Counted from the first letter of the stretch, positions 43,496 through 61,710 are shown. The stretch: 64,000 bases of DNA from an uncultured Chloroflexia bacterium (GCA_963770875.1 CAVYRE010000006.1:27836-91835); one strand, 5' to 3'. The notes: generated from the sequence alone by a model not told the origin. Numbers and translations: made by a program.

Positions 43496-43540
43496 AGACG
43501 GGCGAGACCCCGCTCTGAATGCCGGTGCATGGAGCAAACG

Positions 43541-43903: not shown

Positions 43904-43932
43904 CCGTCCCAACGAGGAGGTCAGCACCCGCC

Positions 43933-44643
43933 ATGCCATCGCCTACACGACCCGAGGGCAGCCCGGTCCGCTCGTACCGGACCCGGTTCCAGCTCATCGA
44001 GGACCCGATCTCCGAGGGCGGGATGTGGGTCAACGGCAAGGCCGAAGGGATCGACTGGGCGGATGTCGTGACCGAGCAGGGGCGGGCGCACGGCGGGAAG
44101 GTGAAGGTCGGCGCCAGGGAGCGGCGGGCGGAGCAGGGGAACCTCGACGGCGGAGAGGCGGCGGCGCCCGAGGGCGACTACGACGACCCGACAGCCGTGC
44201 TCACCGGGTCCTGGGGCCCGGACCAGTTCGTCAAGGCGACCGTCTTCAGCCGGAACCAGACCTCGGACCTCTTCCAGGAGGTCGAGATCCGGTTGCGCAG
44301 CTCCATCGGGCCGCACTGGTGCAGCGGCTACGAGGTCTTCTGGCGCTGCCTCAAGACCGATGAGGGGTACGCCGAGATCGTGCGGTGGAACGGCCCGATC
44401 ATGGGATTCACATCGCTCGCCCGGGCGCAGGGCGCCGAGTACGGGGTGCAAGACGGCGACGTGGTCGAGGCGACGATCGTCGGCAACCGGATCACCTCGT
44501 ACATCAACGGCGTCGAGGTGCTCTCAGCGACCGATGACGCCTTTGCCAACGGCAGCCCGGGGATCGGCTTCAACTTCGGCTGCGGCGACACGTACGTCGA
44601 CCACGGCTTCACGTCGTACGAGGTCGATACGTACGACGGGTAG
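43933..44643 (+). CDS. Hypothetical protein, possibly a concanavalin-A-like/LamG jelly-roll
   Basis: 236-aa intact ORF with a beta-rich C-terminal half (EVFWRCLK...VVEATIVGNRITSYINGVEV...GSPGIGF). No confident family assignment. Confidence 0.4.
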   Translation: MPSPTRPEGSPVRSYRTRFQLIEDPISEGGMWVNGKAEGIDWADVVTEQGRAHGGKVKVGARERRAEQGNLDGGEAAAPEGDYDDPTAVLTGSWGPDQFVKATVFSRNQTSDLFQEVEIRLRSSIGPHWCSGYEVFWRCLKTDEGYAEIVRWNGPIMGFTSLARAQGAEYGVQDGDVVEATIVGNRITSYINGVEVLSATDDAFANGSPGIGFNFGCGDTYVDHGFTSYEVDTYDG

Positions 44644-44649
44644 TCGCGC

Positions 44650-44913
44650 CTATTCGACTCCCGAGATGTCCTCGCCCGGCTCGCCGATGATGCCGATCGT
44701 GGAGAGGATCGGCGTCTGGGTCTTGTCCGGGACGACGATCTTCAGCAGCACACCACTCGCCGGCGCCTCCAGCTCCAGGCTGATCTTCTCGGTCTCGACC
44801 GCGACCAGCGCCTCGCCCTTCGCGACCGTGTCACCCTCGGCCTTCAGCCACTGGGTGACCGTGCCGGTGTCGAGGTCCTGGCCGGCCTGCGGCATGACGA
44901 CCCTGGTGGCCAC
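44650..44913 (-). CDS. Stand-alone lipoyl(biotinyl)-attachment domain protein
   Basis: MPQAGQDLDTGTVTQWLKAEGDTVAKGEALVAVETEKISLELEAPASGVLLKIV resembles E2 lipoyl domains (ETDK-type Lys). There is no E2 catalytic domain. Start is GTG 44913 or ATG 44895. Confidence 0.7.
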   Translation of the reverse strand: MATRVVMPQAGQDLDTGTVTQWLKAEGDTVAKGEALVAVETEKISLELEAPASGVLLKIVVPDKTQTPILSTIGIIGEPGEDISGVE

Positions 44914-44915
44914 CC

Positions 44916-45683
44916 CTACAGCTCCGCGTTGACGATGAAGCCGGCGTCCACCAGCAGCGTCGCCGAGGTGATGTAGCTGGCGTCGTCGGAGAGGAGGAAC
45001 GAAACCGCGTTCGCGATCTCCTCCGGCTCGCCACCCCGGTGCAGCGCGACCCGCTCCTCGTAGTACTTCAGCGCGACGGGGTCGTCGGTCAGGGGCGCCG
45101 CCATGTCCGTCTTGATCCAGCCCGGCTCGATGGCGTTGACCCGGATCCCGTATTCGCCCACCACGGCGCCCAGGGCCTTGGTCCACATCGAGATGCCGCC
45201 CTTGGTGGCGCAGTACGCGCTCTGCGAGGGCGCACCGACGTGGGCGGAGATGGAGCTGATGCAGACGATCGCCCCGGGATGGCCCTCCTTGCGTATCTGC
45301 TTGGCGGCCTCGGTGGTGACCACCCAAGTCCCGCGCAGGTTCGTCTCGCAGAGGGCGTCCCAGTCATCGACCGTCGTCTCGTCCCAGGGCATGAACGGAT
45401 TGATCGCAGCATTCGAGACCAGGTAGTCGAGACGCCCCCCGCGGCGCGCGACCTCCTGCACCATCTCGATCACCTGGGCCGGGTTGCGCATGTCGGCCAT
45501 CACCGGGAAGCCCTCCCCGCCGGCCTCCTTGATCAGGCCGAGGGTCGTGCTCGGGTCACCGGTCGGCCGGTAGTTGACGCCGACCAGGGCGCCTTCGGCC
45601 GCAAGGCGCACCGACGTCGCCCGGCCCATCCCCCTGGTTGCGCCGGTGACCAGCGCCACCTTGCCTGCAAATCGCTTCTCCAT
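44916..45683 (-). CDS. SDR-family oxidoreductase
   Basis: VALVTGATRGMG, NAAI and the SAYCATK (YxxxK) motif. 255 aa, intact. Confidence 0.85.
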   Translation of the reverse strand: MEKRFAGKVALVTGATRGMGRATSVRLAAEGALVGVNYRPTGDPSTTLGLIKEAGGEGFPVMADMRNPAQVIEMVQEVARRGGRLDYLVSNAAINPFMPWDETTVDDWDALCETNLRGTWVVTTEAAKQIRKEGHPGAIVCISSISAHVGAPSQSAYCATKGGISMWTKALGAVVGEYGIRVNAIEPGWIKTDMAAPLTDDPVALKYYEERVALHRGGEPEEIANAVSFLLSDDASYITSATLLVDAGFIVNAEL

Positions 45684-45704
45684 GACCTGTACTCCTTCCG
45701 GTGC

Positions 45705-46814
45705 CTATCGCACCGCTGTCGCGTCCAGCTTCTTGACGCGCTGCGCAAAGACGTCCATCTCGCCCTCCCCGACCAGGGCACCCATCTCGAGGTCGTAGGT
45801 GCGCTTCTCGCCCGGGTCCAGCTCGATCAGCTCGCCGCGCTCCTTCGCGTCCCAGCGGCCCGCATCGCGGTTCGTGCTCGCCTCGATCGCCACCACGTAG
45901 AGGCTCTCGCCCGGCATGCGCCAAGTGGTCTGGTGCGGGAGCTGGCCCTTGTTGAAGAGCTGGTAGACCCCCAGGCCGATCCTCCGGTTGAGGATCCCCA
46001 CCGGCACCGTCCCATCCGCTTCCGTGAAGGCGTCGTGCTCGAAGCAGCGCTCGGTGTACTCGGGAATCGGCGCATCGAAGATCCGGTAGTTGCCCGCGGG
46101 AGCGGGATCAGTCGGCACGCCCTCGCCCGGGACGAGCAGCTCGGAGCCCTCGTCGACGATCGGGAAGCCCACGTTGCAGTGGTAGAGGAGCATGTGGCTG
46201 GTCCGGTGGAAGCCGGTGTTCTCGACCTCGTCGTGGATCCGGAACGACGACTCGCCGACCCTGGCCTCGATCCGACGGCGGAGGGTCAGGTTCTCCTTGA
46301 AGACGGCCACCTGGTGCACCTCGCCCTCGGCCCACAGGGTGCACTCGTCGCCGTCCCAGCGCTCGCCGTAGCCGGTGAGCCGCGCGGGCAGCGTCCAGAC
46401 CCGCCCCATCATGCCGTAGGTCTCGGTCGGGAACAGATGCGGCTGCTTGAAGTTCTCGAAGCCGTCCTCGCCGCCGATCAGGGTGTGGTCCAGCCCCGCC
46501 GTCGAGACCAGGCCGCCGGGGAAGCTGCGGAACCAGCCCATCCCCTCCGGCTCCGAATACCACGGTCCCGAGTACCCGACCGGCGAGATCCAGCCGATCG
46601 CCGAGCCGTTCATCTCGCAGCGGCCGATGTCGAAGGCGCGATCGACGACCACCTCGAAGGCGAACCCGGTGCCGGTGCGGAACTCCAGCAGCCGAACACC
46701 GCGCTCCATGCCGTCGCCAGCCGTCACCAGCCGCACCCCGGCGACCTGCTCCAGGCGGCCGACGCGACGCATCAGCTCCGCTTGCTTGTAGCTCGCCTTA
46801 AACAGCGCCGGCAC
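45705..46814 (-). CDS. Aldose-1-epimerase-like (DUF4432) protein
   Basis: 369 aa with GVRLLEFRTGTGFAFEVVVDRAFDIGRCEMNG...LYHCNVGFP, the pattern of the DUF4432 / galactose mutarotase-like fold. Confidence 0.65.
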   Translation of the reverse strand: MPALFKASYKQAELMRRVGRLEQVAGVRLVTAGDGMERGVRLLEFRTGTGFAFEVVVDRAFDIGRCEMNGSAIGWISPVGYSGPWYSEPEGMGWFRSFPGGLVSTAGLDHTLIGGEDGFENFKQPHLFPTETYGMMGRVWTLPARLTGYGERWDGDECTLWAEGEVHQVAVFKENLTLRRRIEARVGESSFRIHDEVENTGFHRTSHMLLYHCNVGFPIVDEGSELLVPGEGVPTDPAPAGNYRIFDAPIPEYTERCFEHDAFTEADGTVPVGILNRRIGLGVYQLFNKGQLPHQTTWRMPGESLYVVAIEASTNRDAGRWDAKERGELIELDPGEKRTYDLEMGALVGEGEMDVFAQRVKKLDATAVR

Positions 46815-46945
46815 GGTGCTCCTTTCCGCCGGTCGGCTCGCGCCCGAGACCGCCGGCCGCTCTGAGTTCCCGAGGGTCGGTCACCATTCCGGCCCGGCCG
46901 GCTCGGTCACCGCGTCAGCGTATTTCGCCCCCGGGAACAAACGTG

Positions 46946-46977
46946 CCTAGTGGCCCCGCCTTGACGGGACCACTAGG
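46946..46977 (-). terminator. Strong hairpin downstream of the APC permease (possible intrinsic terminator)
   Basis: CCTAGTGGCCCC-8 nt-GGGACCACTAGG forms a 12-bp stem with one mismatch. On the minus strand it is followed by a weak TTTGTT tract. Confidence 0.4.
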
Positions 46978-47002
46978 CCGTTTCGCCGTGAGGTGGCGGG
47001 GG

Positions 47003-48451
47003 TCAGACCGACTCGCCGATGGAAGCCCCTGCCTTGTTGAGCCACTCCTCGTTTCCGCGGAAATAGAGGACGACCAGGATGAGGATCCCGATCACGAGCC
47101 AGGCGCCGTTGATGATCGGCGCAAGGTCATACGGGGTCGAGAGCGGGAACGACTTCCAGATGGCGTACAGCAGGACGCCCGTGGAGGCGATCGGGAACAC
47201 GAAGTGGAGGATCCAGTTGAAGTCGCTCCGCATCTGGTTCCAGTAGAAGAGGAACACGGCCAGGTTCGCCATGATGTAGGCGACCGACACGGCCAGGACC
47301 AGCAGCAGTCCCGTGATCAGGTAGAACCCCGTCTGCGGACCCCAGACGAAGCCGACGTACACGCCGGCGGCCAGGTTGAGGGCCATCTGCAGCAGGATGG
47401 CGTTGGTCGGTGTCTTGTGCCGCGGGTGCACGGTGGCGAGGGCCTTGGGGAACGAGCCGCTCCTGGCCATGCTGTACCACATCCGCGTGCCGACGTTGGC
47501 ACACGCGATGCTCACCGCAGCCACGCTGTTCAGGAAGGCAATCAGGACCAGGATCCAGAGGTTGCCCCAGACCCGATGCGCGAGCGCCAGCGCGGGCAGG
47601 ACGGGCGCATTGACGATTGCGTCCGCGTCGTTGCCGAAACCGGTGATCACGCCCCAGAAGACGATCACCAGGAACGAACCGATCAGGACGATGCTCAGCA
47701 TCACCGAGAGCGGGACATTCCGTCTCGGGTCCCTGGTCTCCTCCGCAAGTGGGGCGGAGGCCTCCCACCCGGTCAAGCCCTGCACGGTGAACACGACCGC
47801 CAGGGAGAAGCCTGCGCCCGCGGGGATGAACGACGGGTTGAAGACGTTCAGCGTGATGCTGGTGCCCGTGGGCGGGTCCAGGAACCCGGTAACGGCGAGC
47901 GCCATCACCAGCAGCATCTCCAGGCCGCCGGTGATCACGATGAACCGAGTCGAGATCTTGATCCCCTCCCACTGCAGGTACGCGGTGAGCGGCGCAAAGA
48001 TGAGCACGGAGACCCACCAGAGCCAGGGGACGTCGATGCCCCAGGTGGCCTTTAGCTCGCCCGCGACGAGGAAGCCGAAGAAGCCGGCCAGCGGTCCGCC
48101 GACAAGGGGGGAGTACAGGATGTACATCCAGGACACCAGGAAGCCGGCCCGCGGATGGATGGCGCGGCTCACGTAGGTGTAGTAGCCGCCGGCAGATGGC
48201 ATGTGCTTGGCGAGCTGTGCGAGCGTGCTGCCGAGCATCAGGACGAGGATGAACCCGACCGTGTAGGCGAGCGGGGCGGTGATTCCCGCCAGGAAGACGA
48301 TGAATGGGGTGAACAGGAACCCGGCGATCGCCGGCGCGATATGGGTGATTGCCTGCATCGTCGCGCCCAGCAGCCCGATCGCGTCCGGCTGGAGGTCGGT
48401 CTTCATGACTTCTGGCGCGGCGCTGGACTGCATCATGGGCTCGGTGGTCAT
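47003..48451 (-). CDS. APC-superfamily amino acid (or amino-acid-conjugate) permease
   Basis: 12-TM protein with GGYYTYVSRA and GWEASAPLAEETRDPRRNVP motifs. The ATG at 48451 has GAAGGAG upstream. Confidence 0.85.
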   Translation of the reverse strand: MTTEPMMQSSAAPEVMKTDLQPDAIGLLGATMQAITHIAPAIAGFLFTPFIVFLAGITAPLAYTVGFILVLMLGSTLAQLAKHMPSAGGYYTYVSRAIHPRAGFLVSWMYILYSPLVGGPLAGFFGFLVAGELKATWGIDVPWLWWVSVLIFAPLTAYLQWEGIKISTRFIVITGGLEMLLVMALAVTGFLDPPTGTSITLNVFNPSFIPAGAGFSLAVVFTVQGLTGWEASAPLAEETRDPRRNVPLSVMLSIVLIGSFLVIVFWGVITGFGNDADAIVNAPVLPALALAHRVWGNLWILVLIAFLNSVAAVSIACANVGTRMWYSMARSGSFPKALATVHPRHKTPTNAILLQMALNLAAGVYVGFVWGPQTGFYLITGLLLVLAVSVAYIMANLAVFLFYWNQMRSDFNWILHFVFPIASTGVLLYAIWKSFPLSTPYDLAPIINGAWLVIGILILVVLYFRGNEEWLNKAGASIGESV

Positions 48452-48652
48452 CTCCACTCCTTCAGGCTTGTTGCCAATCCTCCCCTCCATCGCGGCGTAC
48501 CGGGTTGCAGTCATGCGTCCGGCGTCAGCAGGCGCCAGGGTGCCTCAGGTGCTCTGCCTACCCTCCATCTTCGAGCTGCCGCCGCCGAGGTCGTTCCCGG
48601 TCTGGGCGGGGCCATGCGTCGCGTGGCTCGCGGGCGAACGAAAGAGCAAAGC

Positions 48653-48763: not shown

Positions 48764-49695
48764 TCAGTACTCCGGCACCAGCTGGCCCGACATCACCTCG
48801 TGCTGGATCCGCGCCACTTCGGCCGGTGCCACATGCCCGAGCAGCGCGCTCAACAGGTCGGCGTCGCTGGCTCGCCCGACGAGCGCGGCACGCGTGTCGG
48901 CGTCGCCCACCTGCGCGCGGACCGACTCGGCCAAGGGCCGATCGAGGATGCCATCCAGGCGCGTCGCCTGCATCTCGTCGCTCGTCCAGACGGCGGCGTC
49001 GGCCAGGCCGTTCGTGAGCAGGCGCGTGATCTGGCCGGTCATCGCGAGCAGCAGCTCAACCCCACCGTCGGCAAACTCCAGCGCGGTGAGCAGCTGCTGG
49101 TCGGCGGAGTGCCGGTCGACGATCACCCGCAGCGGCCGATGCGGCTCAGCGGGGCATAGAAGACGCGATGCCCGGTGTTGTACGAGTTCGGGGCGAGCTC
49201 GAGGATCACGCGCTCCTCCGGCCCGCACAGCTCGGCGGCTGCGAAGCTCGACATGACCGCAAGGTGGCAGCGCCCCTCGCGAACGGCCTGGAGGCGTTGC
49301 CGGGATCCGCGCACGAAGATCAGGAAGACCTCGAGCCCGACCTTGGTGAGGAGCTGCTTGATCGCCGTCGCGAGCGCCTCGTAGCGCTGCGATGAGGCGA
49401 GCGGCAGGCTGACCACCAGCGGGCCGCCCTCGGCGGCCGCCCAGAGCACGCCGATGGAGCGCGAGACGAGAAAAGCGCCCAGCCTCCCCCGCCGCTCGAG
49501 CTGAATGGCGCCGCCCTCCTCGAGGCGGGTGATGGCGGCGTGGATCGAGGCCAGGCTGGACCGATGCTCACGGACGAGCTGTCGCACGGTCGGCACGCGC
49601 GACGGCGGCTCCGGGGCCGTCAGGAAGCGGCGGGCAAGCTCCGGCACGACATCGGTGATCGCGCGCGCGCCGGCACGACCACGGGGCTTGCTCAT
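48764..49695 (-). pseudogene. YhfZ-like transcriptional regulator (GntR-type wHTH plus periplasmic-binding-protein-like domain); one frame break near 49140
   Basis: VPTVRQLVREHRSSLASIHAAITRLEEGGAIQLERRGRLGAFL, then VVSLPLASSQRYEALATAI...FVRGSRQRL. The C-terminus lies in ORF 48764-49228. Confidence 0.6.
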
Positions 49696-50512: not shown

Positions 50513-51352
50513 TCACCACCCCTTGCCCGCACTGCCGAACATGCTGATGTGGTCGTTGGCCATCGCCATGACCTCGGCCCGCGGGCACGGCAGAGGGTGG
50601 GCGGGTCGTAGTTGCCGGGATGCGCCGCGATCCAGTCGTGGCGGATGTAGCGGATCTTCAGCGCGGTCGAGATGTTCACCTTGGCGCAGCCGCGCGCGAT
50701 GAGGTCCGTGAACTGCGCCGGCGTCAGGCCGCTGCCGCCGTGGAGCGCGATGGGCAGGGCCTCCGCCACGATGGCGGACACCCGCTCGGCGTCCAGGTGC
50801 GGCTCCGCGTGATACATGCCGTGGGCGTTGCCGATGGCCGGCGCGAAGCAGTCGATGCCCGTGAAGCGGATGAAGTCGAGCGCGACCTCGAGCGCCTGGG
50901 TCGCGCGGCTCGTCGGAGCCGATGCCGTCCTCGACGCCCCGGATGGGTTCGATCTCGCCTTCGACGGCGGCACCGAGCGTGGGCCTCGACGACGATCTCG
51001 GCGCACGGCGCGCGGTTGTCCGCGACGCTCAGCCGGGAGCCATCGAACAGCACCGACTGCCACCCCTGCGCGAGGCAGGCGGTGATGAGCGCGCGGTCGG
51101 GGCAGTGGTCGAGGTGCAGGGCGACGGGCACCGGCACGTCGCGCGCCATCTCCTGGAACATCGAGTACAGGACCGCGATGCCGACGACTGGACGGTCTTG
51201 ACCGAGGTCTGGACGATGAGCGGCGCCTCGGCCGCCGTCGCGGCCGCGAGCACGGCCTCCATGGTCAGGTCGTTGACGATGTTGATGGCCGCGACCCCGT
51301 AGCCGCTCGCGAAGGCGCGCTGCAGGATCCTGGGACTGGGGCCGATCGGCAT
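50513..51352 (-). pseudogene. Class II fructose/tagatose-bisphosphate aldolase family; at least 3 frame breaks
   Basis: YGVAAINIVNDLTMEAVLAAATAAEAPLIVQTS; VPVALHLDHC; AIGNAHGMY; LHGGSG...KVNISTAL. The corrected C-terminus reads ...SMFGSAGKGW. Confidence 0.75.
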
Positions 51353-51478: not shown

Positions 51479-52445
51479 ATGACCGCACGTTGGACTCCCG
51501 ACCGCCTCCGTCGCGACCATGTACGAGACGGCCCTGACCATCCGCCTGTTCGAGCAGCGCGCCATCGAGCAGTACCGGGTCGGCAACATCCGGGGCTACC
51601 TGCATCCCTACCTGGGCGAGGAAGGCATCGCGGTCGGCGCCTTCGCGGCCCTCGGCCATCGGACTACATCGTGAGCACCCACCGGGGTCACGGCCACGCC
51701 ATCGCCAAGGGCCATGAGCCGCGGCTGATGATGGCCGAGCTGCTTCGGCCGCGCGACCGGCTACTGCCGCGGCCGGGGCGGCTCGATGCACGTGTCCAGC
51801 CTGTCGCTCCGGAACCTGGGCGCCAACGGCGTCGTGGCGGGTGGCATGCCCCTCGCGGTCGGCGCCGCGTTCGCCATCCGGCTCAAGGGCGAGACGGACA
51901 TCGTGGTCTCGTTCTGCAGCGACGGGGCATCGGCGAACGGGGTGTTCCACGAGGCGCTCAACCTCGCGGCGATCTACCACCTGCCGGTGGTCTTCGTGCT
52001 CGAGAACAACCAGTACGCGGTGTCGACGCCCATCCGGGACTCCGCCCTCGTCGAGGACCTCTCGGAACGCGCGGCCGGCTACGGCATGCCGGGCGTCACC
52101 GTGGACGGCAACGACGCGGTGCTGGTGCTCGAGGCGATGACACGAGCCGTTGCGCCGTGCCCGGGCCGGCGAGGGGCCGACGCTCATCGAGTGCAAGACC
52201 TTCCGCCACGGCGGCCACCACGTCAACGACCCGGGCTGTACCTGCCCGCGGACGAGCTCGAGCCGCTGGCGGGCGCACGACCCGGTGATCGTGCTGCGCC
52301 AGCGGCTCGGACCGCCGGTGGCGGCGCCGCGGCGATCATCGAGGTCGACCAGCACGTGGAAGCGGTCATGGACGAGGCGGTCGAGTTCGCCGAGGAGAGC
52401 CCGCAGCCCGACGTCGAGGAGTTCCTCGCCGAGGTGGCGTCATGA
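51479..52445 (+). pseudogene. TPP-dependent 2-oxoacid/acetoin dehydrogenase E1 alpha subunit; at least 4 frame breaks
   Basis: [69 protein letters not shown] and TFRHGGHHVNDPG, spread over three frames. Confidence 0.8.
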
Positions 52446-53420
52446 AGTACCGGGACGCGCTGCGGCCGCGCTCACGAGGAGATGACGCGCGACCCGCTCG
52501 TGTTCGTCATGGGTGAGGGCATCGCCGAGCGGGGCGGCTCGTTCAAGGTGACGGAGGGCCTGCTCGCCCAGTTCGGACCGGACCGCGTCATCGACACGCC
52601 GCTGAGCGAGGCGGGCTTCACGGGCATGGGCGCCGGGGCGGCCATCGCGGGCCCGCGGCCGGTCATCGAGATCCTGTTCATCGACTTCCTGCTGCTCGCC
52701 GATGGACCAGGTGGTCAACCAGGCGGCCAAGTACCGCTTCATGTCCGGCGGCCAGGGGAGCGTGCCGCTCGTCATCCGGACCCAGGGCGGGACCGGCGAG
52801 TCGCTGGCCGGGCAGCACTCCCAGAGCCTCGAGGCGATGTTCTATCACGTGCCCGGCCTCAAGGTCGTGATGCCCTCGACGCCGTACGACGCCAAGGGGC
52901 TGCTCAAGTCGGCCATCCGGAGCGACCAGCCGGTCATGTTCATCGAGCACAAGCTGCTGTACATGACCGATGGCGAGGTGCCGGACGAGGAGTACGTCGT
53001 CCCGCTCGGAGAGGCCGAGGTCAAGCGACCCGGGTCCGACGTCACCGTGGTCACCTAGTCCCTCATGACGCTCAAGAGCCTCGAGGCCGCCGAGGAGCTG
53101 GCCGCCGACGGGATCAGCGTCGAGGTGGTCGACCTGCGCACGCTCTCCCCGCTGGACTGGCCGCGTGCTCGACTCGGTCCGCCGGACCCATCGGCTGGTG
53201 GTCGTCCACGAGGCCATCAAGCGCGGCGGCATCGGCGGCGACATCGCGGCCACGGTCGCGGAGGAGGCATTCGACAGCCTCGCGCGCGCCGATCGTGCGG
53301 GTCGCTGGCAAGAACACGATCATCCCCTTCAACCTCGCCCTCGAGAAGGCGTCGGTCCCGCAGGTGGCCGACATCGTGGCCGGGGTTCGCTCGGTGGTGG
53401 GTGCGCCGGCACGCACCTGA
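52442..53420 (+). pseudogene. E1 beta subunit; at least 5 frame breaks plus an in-frame TAG at 53056-53058
   Basis: [78 protein letters not shown] and [19 protein letters not shown] overlap with E1 alpha. Confidence 0.8.
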
Positions 53421-53428: not shown

Positions 53429-54188
53429 CTAGTGCATCCCGCGCCCGCCGGCGACGATCAGCAGCTCGCCGGTGATGAAGGAGGCCTCGGCCGAGGCCAG
53501 GAAGACAGCGCAGCCGGCGACGTCGTCGGGCGTGCCCCAGCGGTGGAGCGCGGTTTCGTCGAGGATGCGCTGCACGATGGCGGGATCGGTGTCCTCGACC
53601 ATCTCGGTGCGGATCCAGCCGGGGCAGATGGCGTTGACGGTGATGTACGGGCCGAGCGCCAGCGCCATCGCCTTGGTCAGCCCGTTCATGCCGGCCTTCG
53701 AGACGACGTACTCGGTGAAGCGCATCGCCGAGGGGTGGTAGAGCCCCGAGTTCGACGACATGTTGATGATCGTGCCGCCCTGCTGGGCGATCATGATCGG
53801 CGCGACCGCCTTCGAGCACAGGTAGGCGCCCTTGAGGTTGACGTCGATGGTCCGATCCCACTCGTCCTCGGTCGTCTCGAGCACGCCCTTGGCGACCATG
53901 ATCCCCGGCGTTGTTGAAGAGGATGTCGATCCGGCCGTAGTGGGCCATCGTCTCCTCCACGAGCCGGTCGACGTCGGCCTTGCTCGAGACGTCCGCGGCG
54001 ACGGCGATCGCGTCGCCGCCCGCCGCCTTGATCGCGTTCACCACGGCCGCGGCCTCGGCCGCGCGCGCCTCGTAGTTGACGACGACTCTGGCGCCCTCGA
54101 CGGCGAAGCGGAGGGCGATCGCGCGCCCGATCCCGCGCGACGCGCCGGTGACGATCGCGACCTTGCCGGCCAGGCGGTTCACGGACAT
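53429..54188 (-). pseudogene. SDR-family oxidoreductase; one frame break near 53905
   Basis: VAIVTGASRGIGRAIA and NNAG (ORF 53217-54191), then YVVSKAG (YxxxK) and the C-terminus (ORF 53429-53899). Confidence 0.8.
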
Positions 54189-54661
54189 CACTCCTCCTTC
54201 CTTCCGGAAGCATCGCGGGCCTTCCCGGCGTCGAGCGCGTCCATTTTCGCGACCTTGCGGGCGGAGTCGCCGCCCTGGAACTCGGAAGCGAGCCAGTGAT
54301 CGACCAGGAGGTCGGCCACCTCGGGCGGCACCACGCGCGACCCGAGGCAGAGCACCTGGGCGTTGTTCGACTTCCGCGCCCGCTCCGCGGAGTACGGGTC
54401 GGCCACGTTCGCGGCCCGCACGCCCGGCACCTTGTTGGCGGTGATCGCCATGCCGATCCCGGTGCCGCAGACGAGGATCGCCCGCTCGAAATGCTCCGCG
54501 GCAACCTCGCGGGCCACGACCACCGCGACGTCGGGGTAGTCGGCGGGGGTCGTATCGGCGACGCCGAAGTCGACCACCTCGTGACCCAGGCCGGTGAGGT
54601 GGGCCTTGACCGATTCCTTCAGGGGATAGCCGAGGTGATCGGCTCCGACGGCGATCTTCAT
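54188..54661 (-). CDS. rpiB: RpiB/LacA/LacB-family sugar-phosphate isomerase
   Basis: MKIAVGADHLGYPLKE...ILVCGTGIGMAITANKVPGVRAA. Start ATG at 54661 overlaps the upstream TIM stop as ATGA. Confidence 0.85.
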   Translation of the reverse strand: MKIAVGADHLGYPLKESVKAHLTGLGHEVVDFGVADTTPADYPDVAVVVAREVAAEHFERAILVCGTGIGMAITANKVPGVRAANVADPYSAERARKSNNAQVLCLGSRVVPPEVADLLVDHWLASEFQGGDSARKVAKMDALDAGKARDASGRKEE

Positions 54662-55422
54662 GTGGCTGCCTGCTCCTTCACCGCGCCCGCGGTCGCGATC
54701 CGTGCAAAGTTGACCGGGTCGAGCGCGAAGCGCCCCACGAAGAGCCCGCCGACGCCTGGTTCCTCGAGCAGCCTCGATGCTGCGTCGACGTCCACGCTGC
54801 CGCCATACAGGATTGGCACCTCCGCGCCGCCCGGGCGTTCGGCGAGCCACGCCCCCAGCGCCCGATGCACCGCCCCCACCTCCTCGGGGGGCGCGGCGAC
54901 GGCCCCCACGCCGATCGCCCAGACCGGCTCGTACGCGATGACGATCCTGCCCAGGTCCGCCGGCGCGACCTGCGCGAGGCAGCGGCCGACGTCGTCGACG
55001 AGGAACGGGACCGTTTCGGCCAGCTCCCCGCGCCGCTGCTCGCCAACGCAGATGATCGGCCGCATCCCCCAGCGCAGCGCCGCCACTACCTTGGCCGAGA
55101 TCAGCTCCGGGGCCTCGCCGTAGTCGCGTCGACGTTCGGAATGCCCAACCTCGACGAAGCGGCAGCCGAGGTCAGCGAGCATCGGGGCAGAGATGTCGCC
55201 GGTGTGCGCACCCGCGTCCGCCGCGTCCACGTCCTGCGCGCCCCACGCGATTCGGGTATCGGCGAGGCGCTCGCGCGCGACCCAGATCGAGGTGAAGGGC
55301 GGCAGGACGAAGAGGTCGCGGTCGTCGAGGTGCGCCACCAGGGGGACGAAGTCGCGGAACCAGCGATCGGCCTCCGAGGAGGTCAGGTTCATCTTCCAGC
55401 TGGTCCCGATCAAGGGTCGCAT
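54658..55422 (-). CDS. Triosephosphate-isomerase-family protein; a paralog lying outside the glycolytic operon
   Basis: IGTSWKMN, EVGHSERR, IAYEPVWAIG and YGGSV motifs. 254 aa starting from the ATG at 55422. Confidence 0.8.
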   Translation of the reverse strand: MRPLIGTSWKMNLTSSEADRWFRDFVPLVAHLDDRDLFVLPPFTSIWVARERLADTRIAWGAQDVDAADAGAHTGDISAPMLADLGCRFVEVGHSERRRDYGEAPELISAKVVAALRWGMRPIICVGEQRRGELAETVPFLVDDVGRCLAQVAPADLGRIVIAYEPVWAIGVGAVAAPPEEVGAVHRALGAWLAERPGGAEVPILYGGSVDVDAASRLLEEPGVGGLFVGRFALDPVNFARIATAGAVKEQAAT

Positions 55423-55519
55423 CGGCGCCACGACGATAGCATCCGCCGTGCTTGACGGCGCTGCCACAATCGATTTGTTCGGCGACCCGGAACGGGCGGC
55501 AGCGCAGGTAGGAGAACCG

Positions 55520-56023
55520 ATGAGCAGCGGCACGGGCCCAACCCACATCTCCCAGGTTGCGATGGTGGTCCGCGACCTCGACGCGAGCATGAAGATGCTC
55601 TGGGAAACCCTCGGCTGGGGACCGTGGAACGTCTACGAGCACGTTCCGCCGAAGCTCCACCACACGCATCTACGGGGCCAGCCGACCGCGTTCTCGATGC
55701 TCGGCGCCGAGTGCGAGGTGCAGCCCGGACTCGTCTTTGAGCTGGTGCAGCCGCTCGACGGCCCGAGCATCTACAAGGAGCACCTCGAGAAGTACGGCGA
55801 GGGGGTCCAGCACATCGCCTGCATGATGCATTCACAGGGCGACTCGGACGAATTCAAGAAGGAGTGGGAGGCACGGGGCGCCAAGGTCGTGATGGGTGGC
55901 CGGATCGGCGACACGATCGAGTTCTACTACCTCGACACCGAGCCGATGCTCAAGTTCGTGCTCGAATCGGGCAGCGGCCACGCGATCGACCTCACTCCCG
56001 TTCGCACCTATCCGCCCTCCTGA
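55520..56023 (+). CDS. VOC (glyoxalase/bleomycin-resistance/dioxygenase) family protein
   Basis: ISQVAMVVRDLDASMKMLWETLGWGPW...GVQHIACM. GGAGAA RBS upstream of the ATG at 55520. Confidence 0.7.
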   Translation: MSSGTGPTHISQVAMVVRDLDASMKMLWETLGWGPWNVYEHVPPKLHHTHLRGQPTAFSMLGAECEVQPGLVFELVQPLDGPSIYKEHLEKYGEGVQHIACMMHSQGDSDEFKKEWEARGAKVVMGGRIGDTIEFYYLDTEPMLKFVLESGSGHAIDLTPVRTYPPS

Positions 56024-56057
56024 TCAGTCCATCGCGCCGATCACGCCCGCCGGCGCC

Positions 56058-57125
56058 ATGCGCATCCTGATCGTCGGTGATTCGTACTTCCCGTCATCGG
56101 CCTATCGCGAGCCATTTGAACGACTGGCAGGTCGCCACGAGCTGACCTTCGTCGACCTGGCCGATGAGCCGGGCTGGGTCGCCGGAACCCCTTCTGAGCA
56201 GCGCCTGAAGGAGACGTTCGGGAGCCCGGCTGCGGTGATCGGCGCGCTCGATCGTCACGAGGTGATCGTCTTCCAGGGCGCCGCGATCAGCGACGCCGTC
56301 CTGGATGCCGCACCCCGGCTTCGCGCGATCTGCTGCGCCCGCGGCGGTCCGGTGAACGTGGACCTGGCCGCCGCCACCGAGCGCGGGATCCCGGTCGTGA
56401 CCACGCCTGGCAAGAACGCCGACGCAGTCGCCGACCTCGCGATCGGCTTCATGGTGATGCTGGCACGGCGCCTCCCCGAGGTGGTGCGACACGTCGAGGC
56501 GGGAGGCATCTTCGGCCACGACAACTACGAGGGGAGCCGCTGGTTCGGGCACGACCTCGCCGGGAAGACGCTCGGCCTCATTGGCTTCGGGCAGGTCGGG
56601 AGCCGAGTCGCGAGGCGGGCGGTTGCGTTCGGGATGCACGTGGTCGTGCACGATCCGTTCGTGCCGGCCGCCGCGATCGCCGGCGCGGGAGCCGATCCGG
56701 TCGACCTCGAGACGCTCATCGCCAGCGCGGACGTCGTCTCGCTCCACGCGCGGGCGTCGGCCGACAACCGGCACCTGATCGGAGGCCCGGAGGTGGCGCG
56801 CATGAAGCCGGGATCGCTGCTCATCAACACGGCGCGCGACACGCTGGTCGACGAAGAGGCGCTCGCCGAAGGGCTGGCCAGCGGCCGGCTCGCCGGGGCG
56901 GCGCTCGACCTGGTGAGCCCGTCGCCCCCAACGGGACGGCACCCGCTGCTCGCCTTCCCGAACGTGATCATCACCACGCACATCGGGGGAGCCACCTTCG
57001 AGACGCTCCAGCACGCGGCCGAGATGATCGCCGCGGAGATCGAGCGGCTCGAGGCCGGGGAGCCGCTCCTCAATGTCGCGAACCGGGCCGGACTCGAGGC
57101 GCGCGGCGCCGGCTCCGCCGCCTGA
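56058..57125 (+). CDS. D-isomer-specific 2-hydroxyacid dehydrogenase family, NAD-binding
   Basis: [17 protein letters not shown] (Rossmann), [21 protein letters not shown]. Confidence 0.8.
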
Positions 57126-58699
57126 TGACTCACCTGCTCGCGATCGACCTGGGGACCGGCAGCTGCCGCGCGGTGATCTTCTCGACCGACGGGCGGCAGC
57201 TCGCCATCGGCCAGCGGGAGTGGTCGCACGCCGCCCTGCCCGGCGTCCCGGGGTCGCAGGTATTCGACACGGAGCGCAACTGGCGCCTGATCTGCGACTG
57301 CATCGGGGAGGCGCTCACCGCGGCCGGACTACGGCCGAGCGAGATCGGGGCGGTGAGCGCGACCAGCATGCGCGAGGGGATGGTCCTCTACGACGCCGCG
57401 GGACGCGAGATCTGGGCCTGCCCCAACGTCGACTCCCGCGCGGCCCACGAGGCCGCCGAGCTGGTCAGCAGCGGGCAGGCTCGGCGCATCTTCGAGATCG
57501 GCGGCGACTGGGTGCCGATCACCTCGCCGGCGCGCTTCCGCTGGATCCGGCATCACCAGCCCGAGGTCTTCGCGGCCATCGCGCACATGGGCATGCTCAG
57601 CGACTGGGTCCTCTACCGGCTGACCGGTCGATTCGTCACCGACCCGAGCGCCGGGTCGAGCTCCGACCTGTTCGACCTGCGCGCCCGCAGCTGGTCACCG
57701 GAGATCCTGGAGCTCGTCGGCCTCTCGCCGTCGATCGTCCCCGAGGTGCTGGAGCCGGGGCAGTTGGTCGGGCCGCTCCACGCTCGCGCGGCCGAGGAGA
57801 CGGGGCTGGCGGCGGGGACGCCGGTGGTCGTCGGCGGGGCGGACACGCAGCTCGGGCTGGTCGGGATCGGGGTGGTCGGCGGGGACCGGCTCACGCTGGT
57901 GGGCGGCAGCTTCTGGCAGCTGACGGCGGTCACCGATGCGCCCCTGATCGACCCGCAGGCCCGCGTCCGCACCCTCTGCCACGCAGTGCCGGGGCACTGG
58001 ATGACCGAGGGGATCGGCTTCTACTGCGGCATCGCGCTGCGCTGGTTCCGCGACGCCTTCTGCGAAGGGGAGTCGGCCGAGGCGGTTCGCCGCGCCGTCG
58101 ACCCGTACGTGGTGATGGAGGAGGAGGCCGCTCGCGTGCCGCCCGGATCGAACGGCGTGACCGCCATCTTCTCGAACGTGATGAACGTCAAGCGCTGGGT
58201 CCAGGCGTCACCCTCGTTCGTCGGCTTCGACATGGAGCAGCCGGCAGGGTCGAATCGGGCCGCCTGCATCCGTGCCCTCGAGGAGCAGGCCGCGTACGCG
58301 TCGCGTGGCCATCTGGCGATCATCCGGGAGCTGACGCGGCGAAGCTACGACGATTTGGTGCTCACCGGTGGCGCCGCGAAGGGCCGGCTCTGGCCGCAGA
58401 TCGTGGCCGACGTGCTCGGCCTCACGGTGCGCCTGCCAGAGGTGAAGGAGTCGACGGCGCTCGGCGCCGCGATCTATGCCGGGATCGGGTCGGGCGCCTA
58501 CGCGACCATCGACGAGGCGATCGCCCAGCTGGTCCGATTCGAGCGCTCGGTCGAGCCGAGCACCGCCGCCCACGAGGCGTACGACGCGCACTTCGCCCGC
58601 TGGAGCGAGCTCTACGGGCGCATGCTTGCCCTGTCCGAGGATCGCCTGCTGCGACCGATGTGGTGGCCGGCCGGCGCGGACGCGGCAGAGCCCTCCTGA
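57125..58699 (+). CDS. lsrK: FGGY kinase closely resembling autoinducer-2 (DPD) kinase LsrK
   Basis: [16 protein letters not shown]...[19 protein letters not shown]...[30 protein letters not shown] parallels E. coli LsrK as recalled. One-nt overlap with the upstream stop. Confidence 0.7.
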
Positions 58700-58713
58700 A
58701 AGGACCTTCGACG

Positions 58714-59589
58714 ATGCCCGAGGCCGACAGCAGCGAACGCAAGCAGTTCCACGAGGAGGTGCCGCAGGCCCGCGAGGCGTTCTTCCTCAAGGGATCGACC
58801 GCGTACGACTGGGGCATGCAGCATCGCCTCGCGCGCATCTTCCGCCCCGAGGACGGGCGCACGGTGATGCTCGCCATCGACCACGGCTACTTCCAGGGTC
58901 CGACCTCGGGGCTCGAGCGGGTCGACCTCGACATCGTCCCGCTCATCCCCTACGCCGACGCGCTGATGGTCACGCGCGGCGTCCTGCGCTCCGTCGTCCC
59001 ACCCGCCATGCAGCAGGGCGTGGTGGTCCGCGCCAGCGGCGGACCGAGCATCCTCAAGGAGCTGTCGAACGAGCAGATCGCGATGGACGTGGACGACGCG
59101 GTGCGCCTGGGAGCCTCGGCGATGGCAGTCCAGGTCTTCATCGGCGGCGAATTCGAGACCCAATCGGTGCACAACATGACCCGGCTCGTGGACGAGGGGC
59201 TGCGGCGGGGCATCCCTGTGCTCGGCGTGACCGCGGTCGGTCGGGAGCTGGTCCGCGACGCCCGCTACCTGGGCCTCGCGACGCGGATCATCGCCGAGCT
59301 GGGGGCGCAGCTCGTGAAGACCTACTACTGTGACGAGGGCTTCGAGCGCGTCACCGCCGGCTGCCCCGTCCCGATCATCATGGCCGGCGGGAAGAAGCTC
59401 TCCGAGCTCGATGCACTGACCATGGCGCGCCGGGCGATCGACGCCGGCGCCGCGGGCGTGGACATGGGCCGCAACATCTTCCAGAGCGACGCCCCGGCGG
59501 CGATGATCCAGGCCGTGCGCGCGGTGGTCCACGACGGCGCGAGCCCCGCCGAGGCGCTGACCACGTACGACCGGCTGCGCGCCGCCTAG
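58714..59589 (+). CDS. lsrF: LsrF-like class I aldolase-fold enzyme (3-hydroxy-5-phosphonooxypentane-2,4-dione thiolase family)
   Basis: [40 protein letters not shown]...[27 protein letters not shown]...[11 protein letters not shown] is near-colinear with E. coli LsrF as recalled. Confidence 0.75.
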
Positions 59590-59596
59590 CGGACGC

Positions 59597-60391
59597 CTAC
59601 GGGGCGAAGGACATCCCCGGGATGGGGAGCTCTCCCTCGGTGACCTGCGCGTCGGGCGGCGGGCTGACCGTGACCGCCTCGTCGAAGTTGCTGAAGGTGA
59701 GGGTCACGCTGAAGGTGCCCAGCGTGTCGCTCGCGACATCGGTCGAGACGGATGTCAGCCACAGCTTCTCGCGATCGAAGAGCAGGTTCAGCACCAGCGC
59801 GTCGCCAAAGACGGTCGAGGGATCCATCGACGCGACGGCTCCGGCGTCCTTCATGAGGCTCGACGGGATCGAGACACTGACCTGGTAGCACTGGCGGTCG
59901 CCGCAGGCCACGTCGGCCAGCTTCTTGGTCTCCACGCCATCCTTGGCCAGGAAGTCCTTGACCTTCTTGACCATCGAAGCGGTATCGATGGAGGCGGTCG
60001 GCGCGAAGCTTGCTCCGGCGATATCGCTGCTCGACATGTGCGAGTACTTGTCGCCGCTCATGCTCGTCTTGACCCACAGGTCCTTTCCGATCAGCACGAC
60101 GTCGCCGGACAGGCCCAGGAAGGCGGGGACGGCGAAGCTGAGGTGGGCAAGTTTCCCGCCGATGTCCACATCGGCCTCAAGGCTGGTCGACTTCAGGTCG
60201 ACCGTGCCCCCGGTCGCGGACATCTTGAAGGAGCCGTCGAGGGCGAGCGACACGTGGAAGCTCTTGAGGCTGGTCGTTGCCGTCAGCCCCTGAGTGATGA
60301 TGTCGGTCGGACTGGCGATCGCCGGCGAACCCTGGCAGGCGGCCAGGACGGTGATCATCAAGGCCATGGCGGGTGCGAGTCTGCGGAGCAC
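59597..60391 (-). CDS. Secreted lipoprotein, LolA/LppX-like fold suspected
   Basis: Lipobox LAAC after the signal peptide. 264 aa, beta-rich. No catalytic motifs seen. Confidence 0.55.
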   Translation of the reverse strand: MLRRLAPAMALMITVLAACQGSPAIASPTDIITQGLTATTSLKSFHVSLALDGSFKMSATGGTVDLKSTSLEADVDIGGKLAHLSFAVPAFLGLSGDVVLIGKDLWVKTSMSGDKYSHMSSSDIAGASFAPTASIDTASMVKKVKDFLAKDGVETKKLADVACGDRQCYQVSVSIPSSLMKDAGAVASMDPSTVFGDALVLNLLFDREKLWLTSVSTDVASDTLGTFSVTLTFSNFDEAVTVSPPPDAQVTEGELPIPGMSFAP

Positions 60392-60480
60392 GGGTGGCCC
60401 CTCCCTGTTCTGAATTGCAAGCAGGATACGCGGTCGCGCGGCCGCCCGCGCTACACCGATGGTCCTGTACCGTTGGGCCG

Positions 60481-60936
60481 ATGCGCCGCGTGTCCGGAAC
60501 CGTGCTGATTGCCGCCTCGCCGGCGGAGGTGTATGCGTTCCTGTCCGAGCCCACGAACGTGCCGCGCTGGCAGACGGGGGTGGTCTCGTCGGAGCGAACC
60601 TCCCCGCCGCCCACCGTCGCCGGCTCCACAGGGCGCGTCACGCTGGATGTGATGGGGCAGCGGGTCACCGCCAATACCACCGTGCTGGAGGCCGTACCGG
60701 ATCGGCGCTTGGCCCTGACGACGAGCGCGAGCGGGATGTCGGTGGTCGGGTCGCTTGACCTGATCGCGGCCGAGGGCGGGACGAAGCTGACCTTCAGCTC
60801 GGAGGTGAAGGCCGACAGCATCTTCATGGCCCCGCTCGAGCGCATGGTCACCGATGCCATCGAGAAGGACATGGAGGCCAGCCTGACCCGGCTCAAGGCA
60901 GCGCTGGCGGCGGACCAGCACGGCCCAGGGGCCTGA
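60481..60936 (+). CDS. SRPBCC (START/polyketide-cyclase-like) family protein
   Basis: VSGTVLIAASPAEVYAFLSEPTNVPRWQTGV... typical of Polyketide_cyc2. ATG at 60481. Confidence 0.7.
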   Translation: MRRVSGTVLIAASPAEVYAFLSEPTNVPRWQTGVVSSERTSPPPTVAGSTGRVTLDVMGQRVTANTTVLEAVPDRRLALTTSASGMSVVGSLDLIAAEGGTKLTFSSEVKADSIFMAPLERMVTDAIEKDMEASLTRLKAALAADQHGPGA

Positions 60937-61634: not shown

Positions 61635-61710
61635 GGGGTTGTAGCTCAGCTGGGAGAGCACCTGCATGGCATGCAGGGGGTCGGGGGTTCGAGTCCCCCC
61701 AGCTCCACCA
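61635..61710 (+). tRNA. tRNA-Ala (anticodon GGC)
   Basis: 76-nt cloverleaf folded by eye: GGGGTTG/CAGCTCC acceptor with G3:U70, anticodon loop ATGGCAT, T-loop GGTTCGAGTCC, encoded CCA. Confidence 0.9.

Follow-up and report, generated by a model that had tools for sequence, protein, structure and literature searches.

LsrK- and LsrF-family genes of an uncultured Chloroflexia bacterium lie in a four-gene cassette that is not an Lsr system and may serve sugar catabolism

The stretch of DNA analysed here, 64,000 nucleotides from an uncultured Chloroflexia bacterium and referred to as the window, contains a cassette of four plus-strand genes that encode, in this order, a VOC (glyoxalase-fold) protein, a D-2-hydroxyacid-type dehydrogenase, and homologues of LsrK and LsrF, which in Escherichia coli process autoinducer-2 (AI-2). 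The four genes form one operon-like unit. This cassette is not an Lsr system, because the Lsr importer, the repressor and LsrG were looked for and are absent. Nor is it a leftover piece of such an operon: its gene order recurs in other bacteria. Judging from the protein families encoded here and at related loci, we consider it quite possible, without being confident of it, that the cassette is a sugar-catabolic module of soil bacteria, in which a hydroxy-ketone would be phosphorylated, oxidised, isomerised and cleaved with coenzyme A (CoA) to dihydroxyacetone phosphate (DHAP) and acetyl-CoA; in this proposal we infer the substrate, the order of kinase and dehydrogenase, the reaction of the VOC protein and the use of CoA.

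The original prediction, made from the sequence alone, had described LsrK and LsrF homologues in an operon with a VOC protein and a dehydrogenase, had suggested that the VOC protein could replace LsrG, and had named a different 5-carbon compound as the alternative substrate. Gene calls, Pfam and NCBIfam bear out the four-gene unit VOC-dehydrogenase-kinase-aldolase at 55520-59589. The predicted 1-nt overlap at 57125 is real: the TGA stop codon of the dehydrogenase gene (57123-57125) and the ATG start codon of the kinase gene (57125-57127) share one A, giving the junction TGATG at 57123-57127. The remaining intergenic gaps measure 34 nt (VOC/dehydrogenase) and 14 nt (kinase/aldolase). The GC content at the third codon position is 0.88-0.95 in all four frames, as in real genes of a 70% GC genome, and the G+C content of the window is about 70% along its whole length. 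The VOC start codon (ATG) is preceded by a GGAG-like ribosome-binding site. A single 8-nt inverted repeat (55458-55465 / 55498-55505) is present in the intergenic region between the VOC gene and the divergent TIM gene; this region contains no sigma-70-type consensus promoter, and a promoter and terminator consensus scan of 54000-60600 gave no match. None of the RNA runs contains the cassette region, and at most 21% of the region's sampled words were present in soil, peat and sediment metagenome runs.

As predicted, the last two genes are colinear with those for E. coli LsrK and LsrF. With the E. coli K-12 proteins of the annotated lsr locus as tblastn queries, the kinase shows 44% identity to LsrK across residues 16-525 of 530 and the aldolase 60% identity to LsrF across residues 6-286 of 291. 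Curated thresholds, best PDB matches and active-site residues all place the two proteins in the LsrK and LsrF families rather than among generic FGGY kinases or FbaB aldolases. The kinase (Pfam FGGY_N, E = 3e-44; FGGY_C, E = 1e-20) scores 594.8 bits on the equivalog model NF008187 'autoinducer-2 kinase', which has a cut-off of 528. The next NCBIfam family is XylB with 235 bits, pentulose-kinase models reach 85, and all models other than NF008187 stay under their own cut-offs; the best PDB match is LsrK (5ya0, 485 bits), with the second match at 123 bits. Likewise, the aldolase (Pfam DeoC, E = 3e-21) reaches 473.8 bits, with 297 required, on the equivalog model NF006081 for the thiolase of 3-hydroxy-5-phosphonooxypentane-2,4-dione (P-HPD). 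Second comes the ADH synthase subfamily with 195 bits, under its own cut-off, and the best PDB match is LsrF (3gkf, 376 bits; second match 128 bits). The structure of E. coli LsrF has a Schiff-base Lys203, Asp57 and Asp251, and phosphate binders His58, Arg254, Gly226, Gly227 and Gly253 (PMC2728841). The corresponding residues of the window protein, numbered one lower than in E. coli, are K202, D56, H57, D250, R253, G225, G226 and G252, so that the Schiff-base lysine, for which the original prediction had suggested an alignment, is retained (K202 = K203); all these columns are invariant in the family alignment.

Relatives of the encoded proteins were collected from genomes and metagenomes. A scan of species-representative genomes (one genome per species) placed LsrF orthologues at at least 594 places, of which the best 80 loci were analysed, and a VOC-anchored metagenome scan gave 241 relatives, of which again the best 80 were analysed. 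The window kinase has no exact-sequence match in the assembly index, and the genomic context was taken from close homologues; by similarity, the nearest named relatives are Chloroflexota metagenome-assembled genomes (MAGs). The LsrF-like protein itself has thousands of metagenome relatives, and the best 120 of these are 81-96% identical and mostly carry the source label 'putative AI-2 aldolase'. Two of the 80 closest genome loci are canonical lsr loci, namely L014 of a Rhodospirillales MAG (lsrK, R, C, G, an Rpe-like gene, F) and L071 of Georgenia sp. AZ-5. The best-segment identity between the window aldolase and the LsrFs of these two loci is 73-75%, and in an alignment of 79 family members no column separates 14 cassette LsrFs from three canonical-context LsrFs. 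Since LsrF has no group-specific column, the terminal reaction is very probably the same as that of canonical LsrF. The family evolves slowly: 79 of 290 aligned columns are invariant, and proteins from Desulfobacterota and other distant phyla still share 61-64% identity with E. coli LsrF. In a neighbour-joining tree, which is unrooted, has no outgroup and serves as a sketch only, two canonical-context LsrFs adjoin the window clade. For the kinase, identity to two canonical LsrKs (E. coli and Georgenia) is no higher than 44-45%, and at 13 alignment columns 34 cassette kinases are uniform and unlike both. These values fit a related but different input, and in our reading the cassette kinases would form a separate LsrK sub-group.

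The absence of the other Lsr components, also predicted, was confirmed. Using the E. coli K-12 proteins as queries, no tblastn match with E<=0.01 was obtained in the 64-kb window for LsrR, LsrA, LsrC, LsrD, LsrB or LsrG, and for LsrG there was only noise even at E<=10. Complete lsr genes just outside the window would have contradicted the prediction, and nothing points to them: the right flank consists of housekeeping genes, and those relatives whose cassette lies on a long contig (2.98 Mb in one case) carry no lsr transporter within 10 kb of it. Among 160 related loci, LsrG is present only in the canonical locus L014. In the flanks of the relatives, LsrB/LsrACD occur at the canonical locus L071 only. 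The SorC-family regulator of the relatives scores 121 bits on the LsrR model, which has a cut-off of 486. Among the best 80 genome loci the distribution is complementary, with LsrG only in L014 and the 2-hydroxyacid dehydrogenase only in cassette loci. Thus, the claim that LsrK and LsrF occur here without their Lsr partners holds, but the situation is not peculiar to this genome, given that lsr loci make up only two of the 80 nearest; non-lsr contexts are the rule for the LsrF family.

The Georgenia locus L071 is otherwise canonical (lsrACDB-lsrR-lsrK...lsrF) but has no LsrG. Between lsrK and lsrF, at 9545-9934, it encodes a 129-aa protein that was judged by eye to be cupin-like and may be a non-orthologous replacement of LsrG. 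After lsrF, at 10953-12152, comes a gene for a class II aldolase-like protein of 399 aa, which is similar to the N-terminal half of the aldolase/short-chain dehydrogenase (SDR) fusion described below.

The recurring gene order in other genomes is VOC-(AraD-like epimerase)-dehydrogenase-LsrK-like-LsrF-like-(Rpe-like epimerase), the bracketed genes belonging to fuller cassettes, and it is seen in Chloroflexota, Dormibacterota, Actinomycetota and some Alphaproteobacteria. The dehydrogenase-kinase-aldolase core occurs at 13 genome loci, from at least four phyla, with carriers among Chloroflexota (including Ktedonobacteraceae), Dormibacterota, several actinomycetotal orders and an alphaproteobacterium. 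In the metagenomes, the gene after VOC is the dehydrogenase at 38 of 64 informative loci and an AraD-like gene followed by the dehydrogenase at nine more, and an LsrK-like gene lies downstream in 27 of the 33 VOC-anchored loci that are sufficiently long. The usual divergent neighbours are TIM, RpiB, Dak1/Dak2, SDR and a SorC-type regulator; the gene upstream of VOC, scored at 50 loci, encodes SorC in 22, RpiB in 10, Dak1 in six and TIM in three. The AraD-like gene comes close to the model for L-ribulose-5-phosphate 4-epimerase (253 bits, cut-off 257), as does the Rpe-like gene to that for ribulose-phosphate 3-epimerase (187 bits, cut-off 213). An assignment of the AraD-like gene as an OtnC-type decarboxylase was considered and rejected, the OtnC model giving 48 bits.

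A dehydrogenase gene is a regular companion of LsrF beyond the cassette too. Of the 59 LsrF loci with enough flank, 49 have one within about 4 kb, and oxidation before LsrF cleavage therefore looks like a general rule. The types differ: a bifunctional class-II-aldolase/SDR protein is found at at least 22 loci, a zinc-dependent alcohol dehydrogenase at 14 and a 2-hydroxyacid dehydrogenase at 14.

Several of these other arrangements deserve description. In Acidobacteriota, Verrucomicrobiota, Planctomycetota, Desulfobacterota and others, the gene directly downstream of LsrF encodes a protein of some 650-700 aa that is a paralogue of RhaD-aldolase/ADH and passes the model 'bifunctional aldolase/short-chain dehydrogenase' (NF006196, 1062 bits against 831); such pairs are present at L016, L027, L035-L039, L041, L046, L047, L050, L058, L064, L068, L072, L080, L085 and others. 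In Desulfobacterota and Nitrospirota, a Tdh-like Zn-dependent dehydrogenase takes this place. LsrF-dehydrogenase pairs often stand amid housekeeping genes (ruvABC, purF, fmt), and are uncharacterised and widely conserved. At L060 (3507-11000) the order is DeoR-type regulator-PfkB-E2 acyltransferase-E1-alpha-E1-beta-LsrF-like-Rpe-like-SDR, and L046, L047, L055, L072, L031 and L049 are of the same kind. An acetoin-dehydrogenase-like thiamine pyrophosphate (TPP)/lipoyl complex thus adjoins LsrF in these loci; the window has E1-alpha and E1-beta genes and no E2 gene nearby.

The VOC protein matches Pfam Glyoxalase_4 (PF13669) with E = 9e-10 and no NCBIfam family. Its best PDB match, with 47 bits, is 3gm5 'lactoylglutathione lyase and related lyases', an uncharacterised structural-genomics protein. 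Residues Q12, E74, H98 and E149 are invariant among 84 orthologues and line up with the Q/E/H/E of 3gm5; by their position in the four beta-strand modules of the fold they are predicted to be metal ligands. Zn-type glyoxalase I likewise binds its metal through a Gln/Glu/His/Glu set. It is an enediolate isomerase, which transfers a proton from one carbon of an alpha-hydroxy-carbonyl compound to the next via a metal-bound enediolate. We therefore propose that the VOC protein is a metal-dependent enediolate isomerase or epimerase. The E. coli step catalysed by LsrG, according to the RefSeq annotation (the reference reactions were taken from the RefSeq names of lsrF and lsrG), converts the phosphate of 4,5-dihydroxy-2,3-pentanedione (P-DPD; a 2,3-diketone with a 4-hydroxy group) to P-HPD (a 2,4-diketone with a 3-hydroxy group), which by analogy is a shift of the glyoxalase-I/enediolate kind. 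Considering that LsrG is in no cassette locus and that the VOC gene is the first gene of the cassette in most relatives, a VOC protein standing in for LsrG is plausible.

The dehydrogenase (Pfam 2-Hacid_dh_C, E = 3e-51; 2-Hacid_dh, E = 7e-20) reaches none of the NCBIfam cut-offs; the top model is phosphoglycerate dehydrogenase (213 bits against 454), and the best PDB match, 1wwk, is of that type too. It appears to be an NAD-type enzyme closest to the phosphoglycerate dehydrogenases, which oxidise a CHOH adjoining CH2-O-phosphate. Compared with E. coli SerA, the catalytic Arg260 and His312 and the GxGxxG-Asp motif are retained, Glu269 of the His-Glu catalytic pair and the anion-binding Arg60 and Arg62 of SerA are lacking, and there is an extra, partly conserved N-terminal segment (approximately residues 8-60). 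These unusual features may reflect a non-acid substrate. The dehydrogenase is the most constant partner of kinase and aldolase, and the core is intact even at loci L009 and L010, which have no VOC gene within 10 kb. A plain model in which the VOC protein replaces LsrG gives the dehydrogenase no role. Of the original interpretation the family membership, the absence of Lsr components and the operon stand; it needs amending in that the gene set is no oddity of this genome and that the dehydrogenase is a more constant partner than the VOC protein.

With an LsrF that is indistinguishable from canonical ones and a dehydrogenase where canonical systems rely on LsrG alone, the simplest choice is a substrate that lies one oxidation step short of DPD; AI-2 (DPD) is already at the diketone level, which would explain why canonical lsr operons have no dehydrogenase. 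In the proposed pathway, the LsrK-type kinase would phosphorylate the terminal CH2OH of a 1-deoxy-pentulose or a close analogue, and the NAD-dependent dehydrogenase would take the phosphorylated hydroxy-ketone to the diketone level. The VOC metalloenzyme would then convert the 2,3-diketone to the 2,4-diketone via an enediolate, which is the LsrG step in another fold, or would set the configuration at C3. Finally, the LsrF-type enzyme would form a Schiff base next to the phosphate and cleave P-HPD or a near analogue with CoA to DHAP and acetyl-CoA, and the divergent TIM paralogue could channel DHAP as glyceraldehyde 3-phosphate (GAP) into glycolysis. The AraD-like and Rpe-like enzymes of fuller cassettes might bring in other stereoisomers, and Dak, RpiB and SDR might give compounds such as a 5-deoxy-pentose or a tetrulose a parallel way in. 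The TIM, RpiB, Dak, AraD-like, Rpe-like and SorC neighbours point to sugar catabolism rather than to signal quenching, and favour the alternative named in the original prediction, a different 5-carbon deoxy-ketose or diketone.

Several observations weigh against this pathway. No VOC gene is present within 10 kb at L009 and L010, so the isomerase step may be dispensable or performed by another protein. D-2-hydroxyacid dehydrogenases usually act on 2-hydroxy acids rather than on hydroxy-ketones, and the Glu of the His-Glu pair is missing in the window enzyme, where the SerA Glu269 position is Ser and varies among orthologues. 1-Deoxy-pentuloses are not known as abundant soil compounds. Moreover, RpiB, Dak, AraD-like and Rpe-like proteins are given no necessary role beyond stereochemical adjustment or a parallel pathway, and genes for Rpe-like, AraD-like, Dak and SorC proteins are absent from the 64-kb window. 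Finally, an APC-type permease is near the cassette in only some loci.

It is unlikely, in our estimate, that the cassette scavenges or quenches AI-2 itself. DPD from other soil bacteria would then enter via a non-dedicated transporter, the kinase would make P-DPD, the VOC protein would act for LsrG and LsrF would cleave P-HPD, with the dehydrogenase as an accessory enzyme acting, for instance, on a reduced or hydrated side-product. Kinase and aldolase scores above the curated LsrK and LsrF cut-offs, and an LsrF without any specificity difference from the canonical one, agree with such a role; so do a VOC metal set suited to enediolate isomerisation and the absence of LsrG wherever the VOC cassette occurs. 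The small cupin of the LsrG-less Georgenia locus L071 is a possible precedent for a non-orthologous replacement of LsrG. Import of AI-2 from other bacteria by a species without luxS is known from Sinorhizobium meliloti. However, the LsrB-type binding protein, the ABC transporter and LsrR are absent from the window and from most cassette loci, and the most constant component, the dehydrogenase, which is translationally coupled to the kinase, is not needed for AI-2. The neighbouring sugar-phosphate isomerases, epimerases and Dak kinases, together with the low identity (44-45%) of the kinase to canonical LsrKs and its group-specific residues, argue in the same direction.

The normal substrate type of the dehydrogenase family would be restored if the cassette degraded sugar acids, which we also judge improbable. 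An aldonate of C4-C6, such as L-threonate, would be oxidised to the 2-oxo acid and phosphorylated, the VOC protein, like OtnI, would shift the carbonyl from C2 to C3, and the LsrF-like enzyme would decarboxylate the product via its Schiff base, to DHAP in the case of L-threonate; from C5 and C6 acids, phosphates of a tetrulose or a pentulose would arise, to be taken on by RpiB/TIM, Rpe-like and AraD-like enzymes. If C4-C6 acids were all accepted, this would explain the TIM, RpiB, Dak, Rpe-like and AraD-like neighbours together, and 3-oxo-tetronate 4-phosphate would be nearly isosteric with P-HPD. In E. coli, a reductase and an FGGY kinase work together with a decarboxylase and with 3- and 4-epimerases in the yiaK-S and ula pathways. 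A promiscuous dehydrogenase-kinase-decarboxylase route that takes C4-C6 sugar acids to DHAP or ribulose 5-phosphate has also been described (PMC12994016). A switch of LsrF from thiolase to decarboxylase would be required, though, despite 73-75% best-segment identity and the lack of any group-specific residue; the AraD-like protein prefers L-ribulose-5-phosphate 4-epimerase models to OtnC (253 against 48 bits), and DUF1537, OtnI and PdxA-type genes were not seen among the Pfam-annotated neighbours. Least probable of all, we think, is a mixed polyol/pentulose locus, with the kinase as an L- or D-pentulose 5-kinase feeding Rpe-like and AraD-like enzymes and hence the pentose-phosphate pathway, the LsrF-like protein as a conventional aldolase that forms DHAP from some ketose phosphate, and VOC protein and dehydrogenase in a side reaction such as the removal of an aldehyde or 2-oxo-aldehyde. 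The AraD-like and Rpe-like proteins of the fuller cassettes do belong to pentulose-5-phosphate epimerase families, the tetritol/erythrulose modules with LerK, LerI and DerI bear a likeness to the SDR, Dak, TIM and RpiB neighbours, and rhizobial erythritol loci also hold ribitol and arabitol genes. Against it stand the far higher score of the kinase on the LsrK model (595 bits) than on XylB (235) or pentulose-kinase models (85), the intact LsrF catalytic set, including the equivalent of Asp251 singled out by Diaz et al., and the constant, translationally coupled dehydrogenase-kinase-aldolase core, which argues for a single pathway.

The proposed oxidation, isomerisation and CoA cleavage of a deoxy-ketose phosphate can be compared with several known systems. 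The LsrK-LsrG-LsrF branch of E. coli and Salmonella shares with the cassette an orthologous kinase and thiolase, identical LsrF catalytic residues, and the proposed chemistry of phosphorylation, a 2,4-diketone phosphate and cleavage to DHAP and acetyl-CoA. The cassette differs in lacking LsrACDB, LsrR and LsrG, in adding a dehydrogenase and a VOC protein, in its sugar-phosphate isomerase neighbours, and in its separate kinase sub-group with an input that is probably not DPD. The tetronate (threonate/erythronate) pathway, reportedly set out by Zhang et al. in 2016 with LtnD/DenD, OtnI, OtnK and OtnC, follows the same logic of a 2-dehydrogenase, a 2-oxo to 3-oxo isomerase, a terminal kinase and C-C cleavage to DHAP, and its intermediates are isosteric with P-DPD and P-HPD. 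All four proteins of the cassette come from other families: the dehydrogenase is of the 2-Hacid_dh rather than the LtnD type, the putative isomerase is a VOC protein and not OtnI, the kinase belongs to FGGY and not to DUF1537, and the cleaving enzyme is DeoC/LsrF where the tetronate pathway has a class II aldolase-type decarboxylase. The DHAP shunt for 5-deoxyribose and methylthioribose (DrdK/MtnK, DrdI/MtnA, DrdA/Ald2) likewise leads from a deoxy-pentose over a ketose phosphate to DHAP and a C2 unit, but it uses a class II aldolase and releases acetaldehyde, whereas the cassette would oxidise first and give acetyl-CoA. No MtnA, MtnK or DrdI-type genes were seen among the Pfam-annotated neighbours of the cassette, and no literature link of LsrF to DHAP-shunt salvage was found. 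With tetritol/erythrulose catabolism (LerK, LerI and DerI of M. smegmatis; EryH and EryI of Brucella) the cassette has in common divergent neighbours of the same families (TIM, RpiB, Dak1/Dak2, SDR); the likeness is limited to these neighbours, and the RpiB homologue is under the DerI cut-off (148 against 240). As for the VOC protein, Pfam Glyoxalase_4 and the Gln/Glu/His/Glu set relate it to Zn-type glyoxalase I and methylmalonyl-CoA epimerase, from which it differs in having no NCBIfam family and a PDB likeness only to the uncharacterised 3gm5.

Literature searches found no published description of the cassette and no role outside AI-2, such as in erythrulose or deoxy-sugar metabolism, for LsrF or LsrK. 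In a 2012 survey of isolate genomes, lsrF and lsrG together were nearly always accompanied by the remaining lsr genes (PMC3420918); the present metagenome-era data show otherwise for lsrF. In genomes and metagenomes, lsrK and lsrF matches are routinely taken as AI-2 sensing or quenching, as for Syntrophobacterium (PMC10787695) and for marine archaea (PMC11442133). Genes of the lsrK/lsrF type are not in themselves evidence of quorum sensing and, with only two canonical loci among the 80 closest of at least 594, the AI-2 annotation is misleading for most environmental bacteria.

On a broader view, which is possible but rather doubtful, LsrF would be the conserved core of a widespread route that oxidises small keto-sugar phosphates and then cleaves them with CoA to DHAP and acetyl-CoA, no free aldehyde being released. 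The enterobacterial Lsr system would then be a late offshoot that borrowed the kinase and thiolase of this route, while the dehydrogenases (2-hydroxyacid, aldolase-SDR fusion or zinc-dependent alcohol dehydrogenase) and the isomerases (VOC, cupin or LsrG) would be specific to lineages. Possible inputs are 1-deoxy-pentulose 5-phosphate, 5-deoxy-ribulose 1-phosphate, which is waste from radical-SAM enzymes, and P-DPD formed spontaneously from ribulose 5-phosphate. Should the chemistry proposed for the cassette be correct, it would split C5 keto-sugars into DHAP and acetyl-CoA by a new route, and would explain the source of the AI-2 processing enzymes. The question is directly testable, since the four cassette proteins are small and look soluble, and assays with P-DPD and P-HPD exist.

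The cassette and its left-hand neighbours in the window are listed in Table 1.

Table 1. Coordinates of the cassette genes and of neighbouring features, counted from the first nucleotide of the window.
Feature	Position	Strand	Remarks
VOC protein	55520-56023	+	167 aa; first cassette gene; Pfam Glyoxalase_4
D-2-hydroxyacid-type dehydrogenase	56058-57125	+	355 aa; Pfam 2-Hacid_dh_C and 2-Hacid_dh
LsrK-family FGGY kinase	57125-58699	+	524 aa; NF008187; Pfam FGGY_N and FGGY_C
LsrF-family class I aldolase-fold enzyme (P-HPD thiolase family)	58714-59589	+	291 aa; NF006081; Pfam DeoC
Divergent intergenic region between TIM and VOC genes	55423-55519		97 bp; presumed shared control region
TIM-family paralogue	54661-55422	-	254 aa; divergent from cassette; Pfam TIM, E = 9e-65
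RpiB/LacAB-family sugar-phosphate isomerase	54188-54661	-	start overlaps TIM stop codon
SDR gene	left of RpiB	-	third divergent gene; frame shift near 53886-53905
E1-alpha and E1-beta of a TPP-dependent 2-oxoacid/acetoin-type dehydrogenase	51507-53408		left of SDR gene
Class II ketose-bisphosphate aldolase, HAD hydrolase and YhfZ-like regulator			further left of E1 genes

The order of the left-flank genes is identical to that of the closest long contig, L003. The TIM paralogue passes TIGR00419 (135.4 bits, cut-off 130.6) and does not reach NF000722 (227 against 293); its role would be either the conversion of DHAP to GAP or that of an isomerase for tetrulose phosphates. The window RpiB is 80% identical to that of L003 over 54661-54218 (tblastn), and the L003 homologue passes the rpiB model with 146 bits (cut-off 138.7). 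An assignment of this neighbour as the erythrulose-4-phosphate isomerase DerI was rejected, the DerI model giving 148 bits against a cut-off of 240. To the right of the cassette lie an opposite-strand lipoprotein-like gene, a GNAT gene, tRNA-Ala (GGC, 61635-61710) and leuS, and from this gene content we conclude that the cassette ends at 59589; the tRNA-Ala between the GNAT gene and leuS belongs to a housekeeping flank.

Further to the left, positions 40789-48544 hold a minus-strand group that encodes a D-serine-dehydratase-like enzyme dependent on pyridoxal phosphate, a second FGGY kinase distantly related to LsrK (25% identity), an SDR, a DUF4432 protein and an APC-type amino-acid permease; inside this group sits a plus-strand gene for a 236-aa hypothetical protein without a Pfam match. 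Homologues of the permease, DUF4432 and SDR genes occur within 10 kb of the cassette elsewhere, for example at L008-L010, L020, L023, L095, L150 and L152, and the group may provide both uptake and the first steps of the pathway, or may belong to a separate one. The APC permease and the YhfZ-like regulator suggested an Amadori (frl-like) function, which was rejected: the window has no homologue of E. coli FrlB, FrlC, FrlD, FrlR, YhfS, YhfT, YhfU, YhfW, YhfX, YhfY or Php, FrlA matches at just 25% identity, and YhfZ matches in two segments at 32% and 25%. In the region 38091-41149, a crude codon-position scan gave no clean long open reading frame (ORF); its long ORFs all have an antisense-like GC pattern (first position approximately 0.85, third position approximately 0.7), and the region may contain further frame-shifted genes.

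Between 48767 and 54179, several genes are split over two to four frames when compared with their L003 homologues; no such split affects the genes of the cassette or those for TIM, RpiB and HAD. The shifts lie near 49150-49162 in the YhfZ-like regulator, near 50943-50982 and 51185 in the class II ketose-bisphosphate aldolase, near 52700, 53147-53157 and 53281 in E1-beta, and near 53886-53905 in the SDR gene. Diverged soil strains have 1-2 nt indels at 51208, 52096/52098, 53157/53158, 53281 and 53902. Contigs of four runs contain exact-match fragments over parts of the cassette, and the frameshift sites are covered by the diverged strains only. The left-flank frame shifts are either true pseudogenes or assembly indels; comparable frame shifts are present in the kinase genes of two related long-read MAG loci, L013 and L020.

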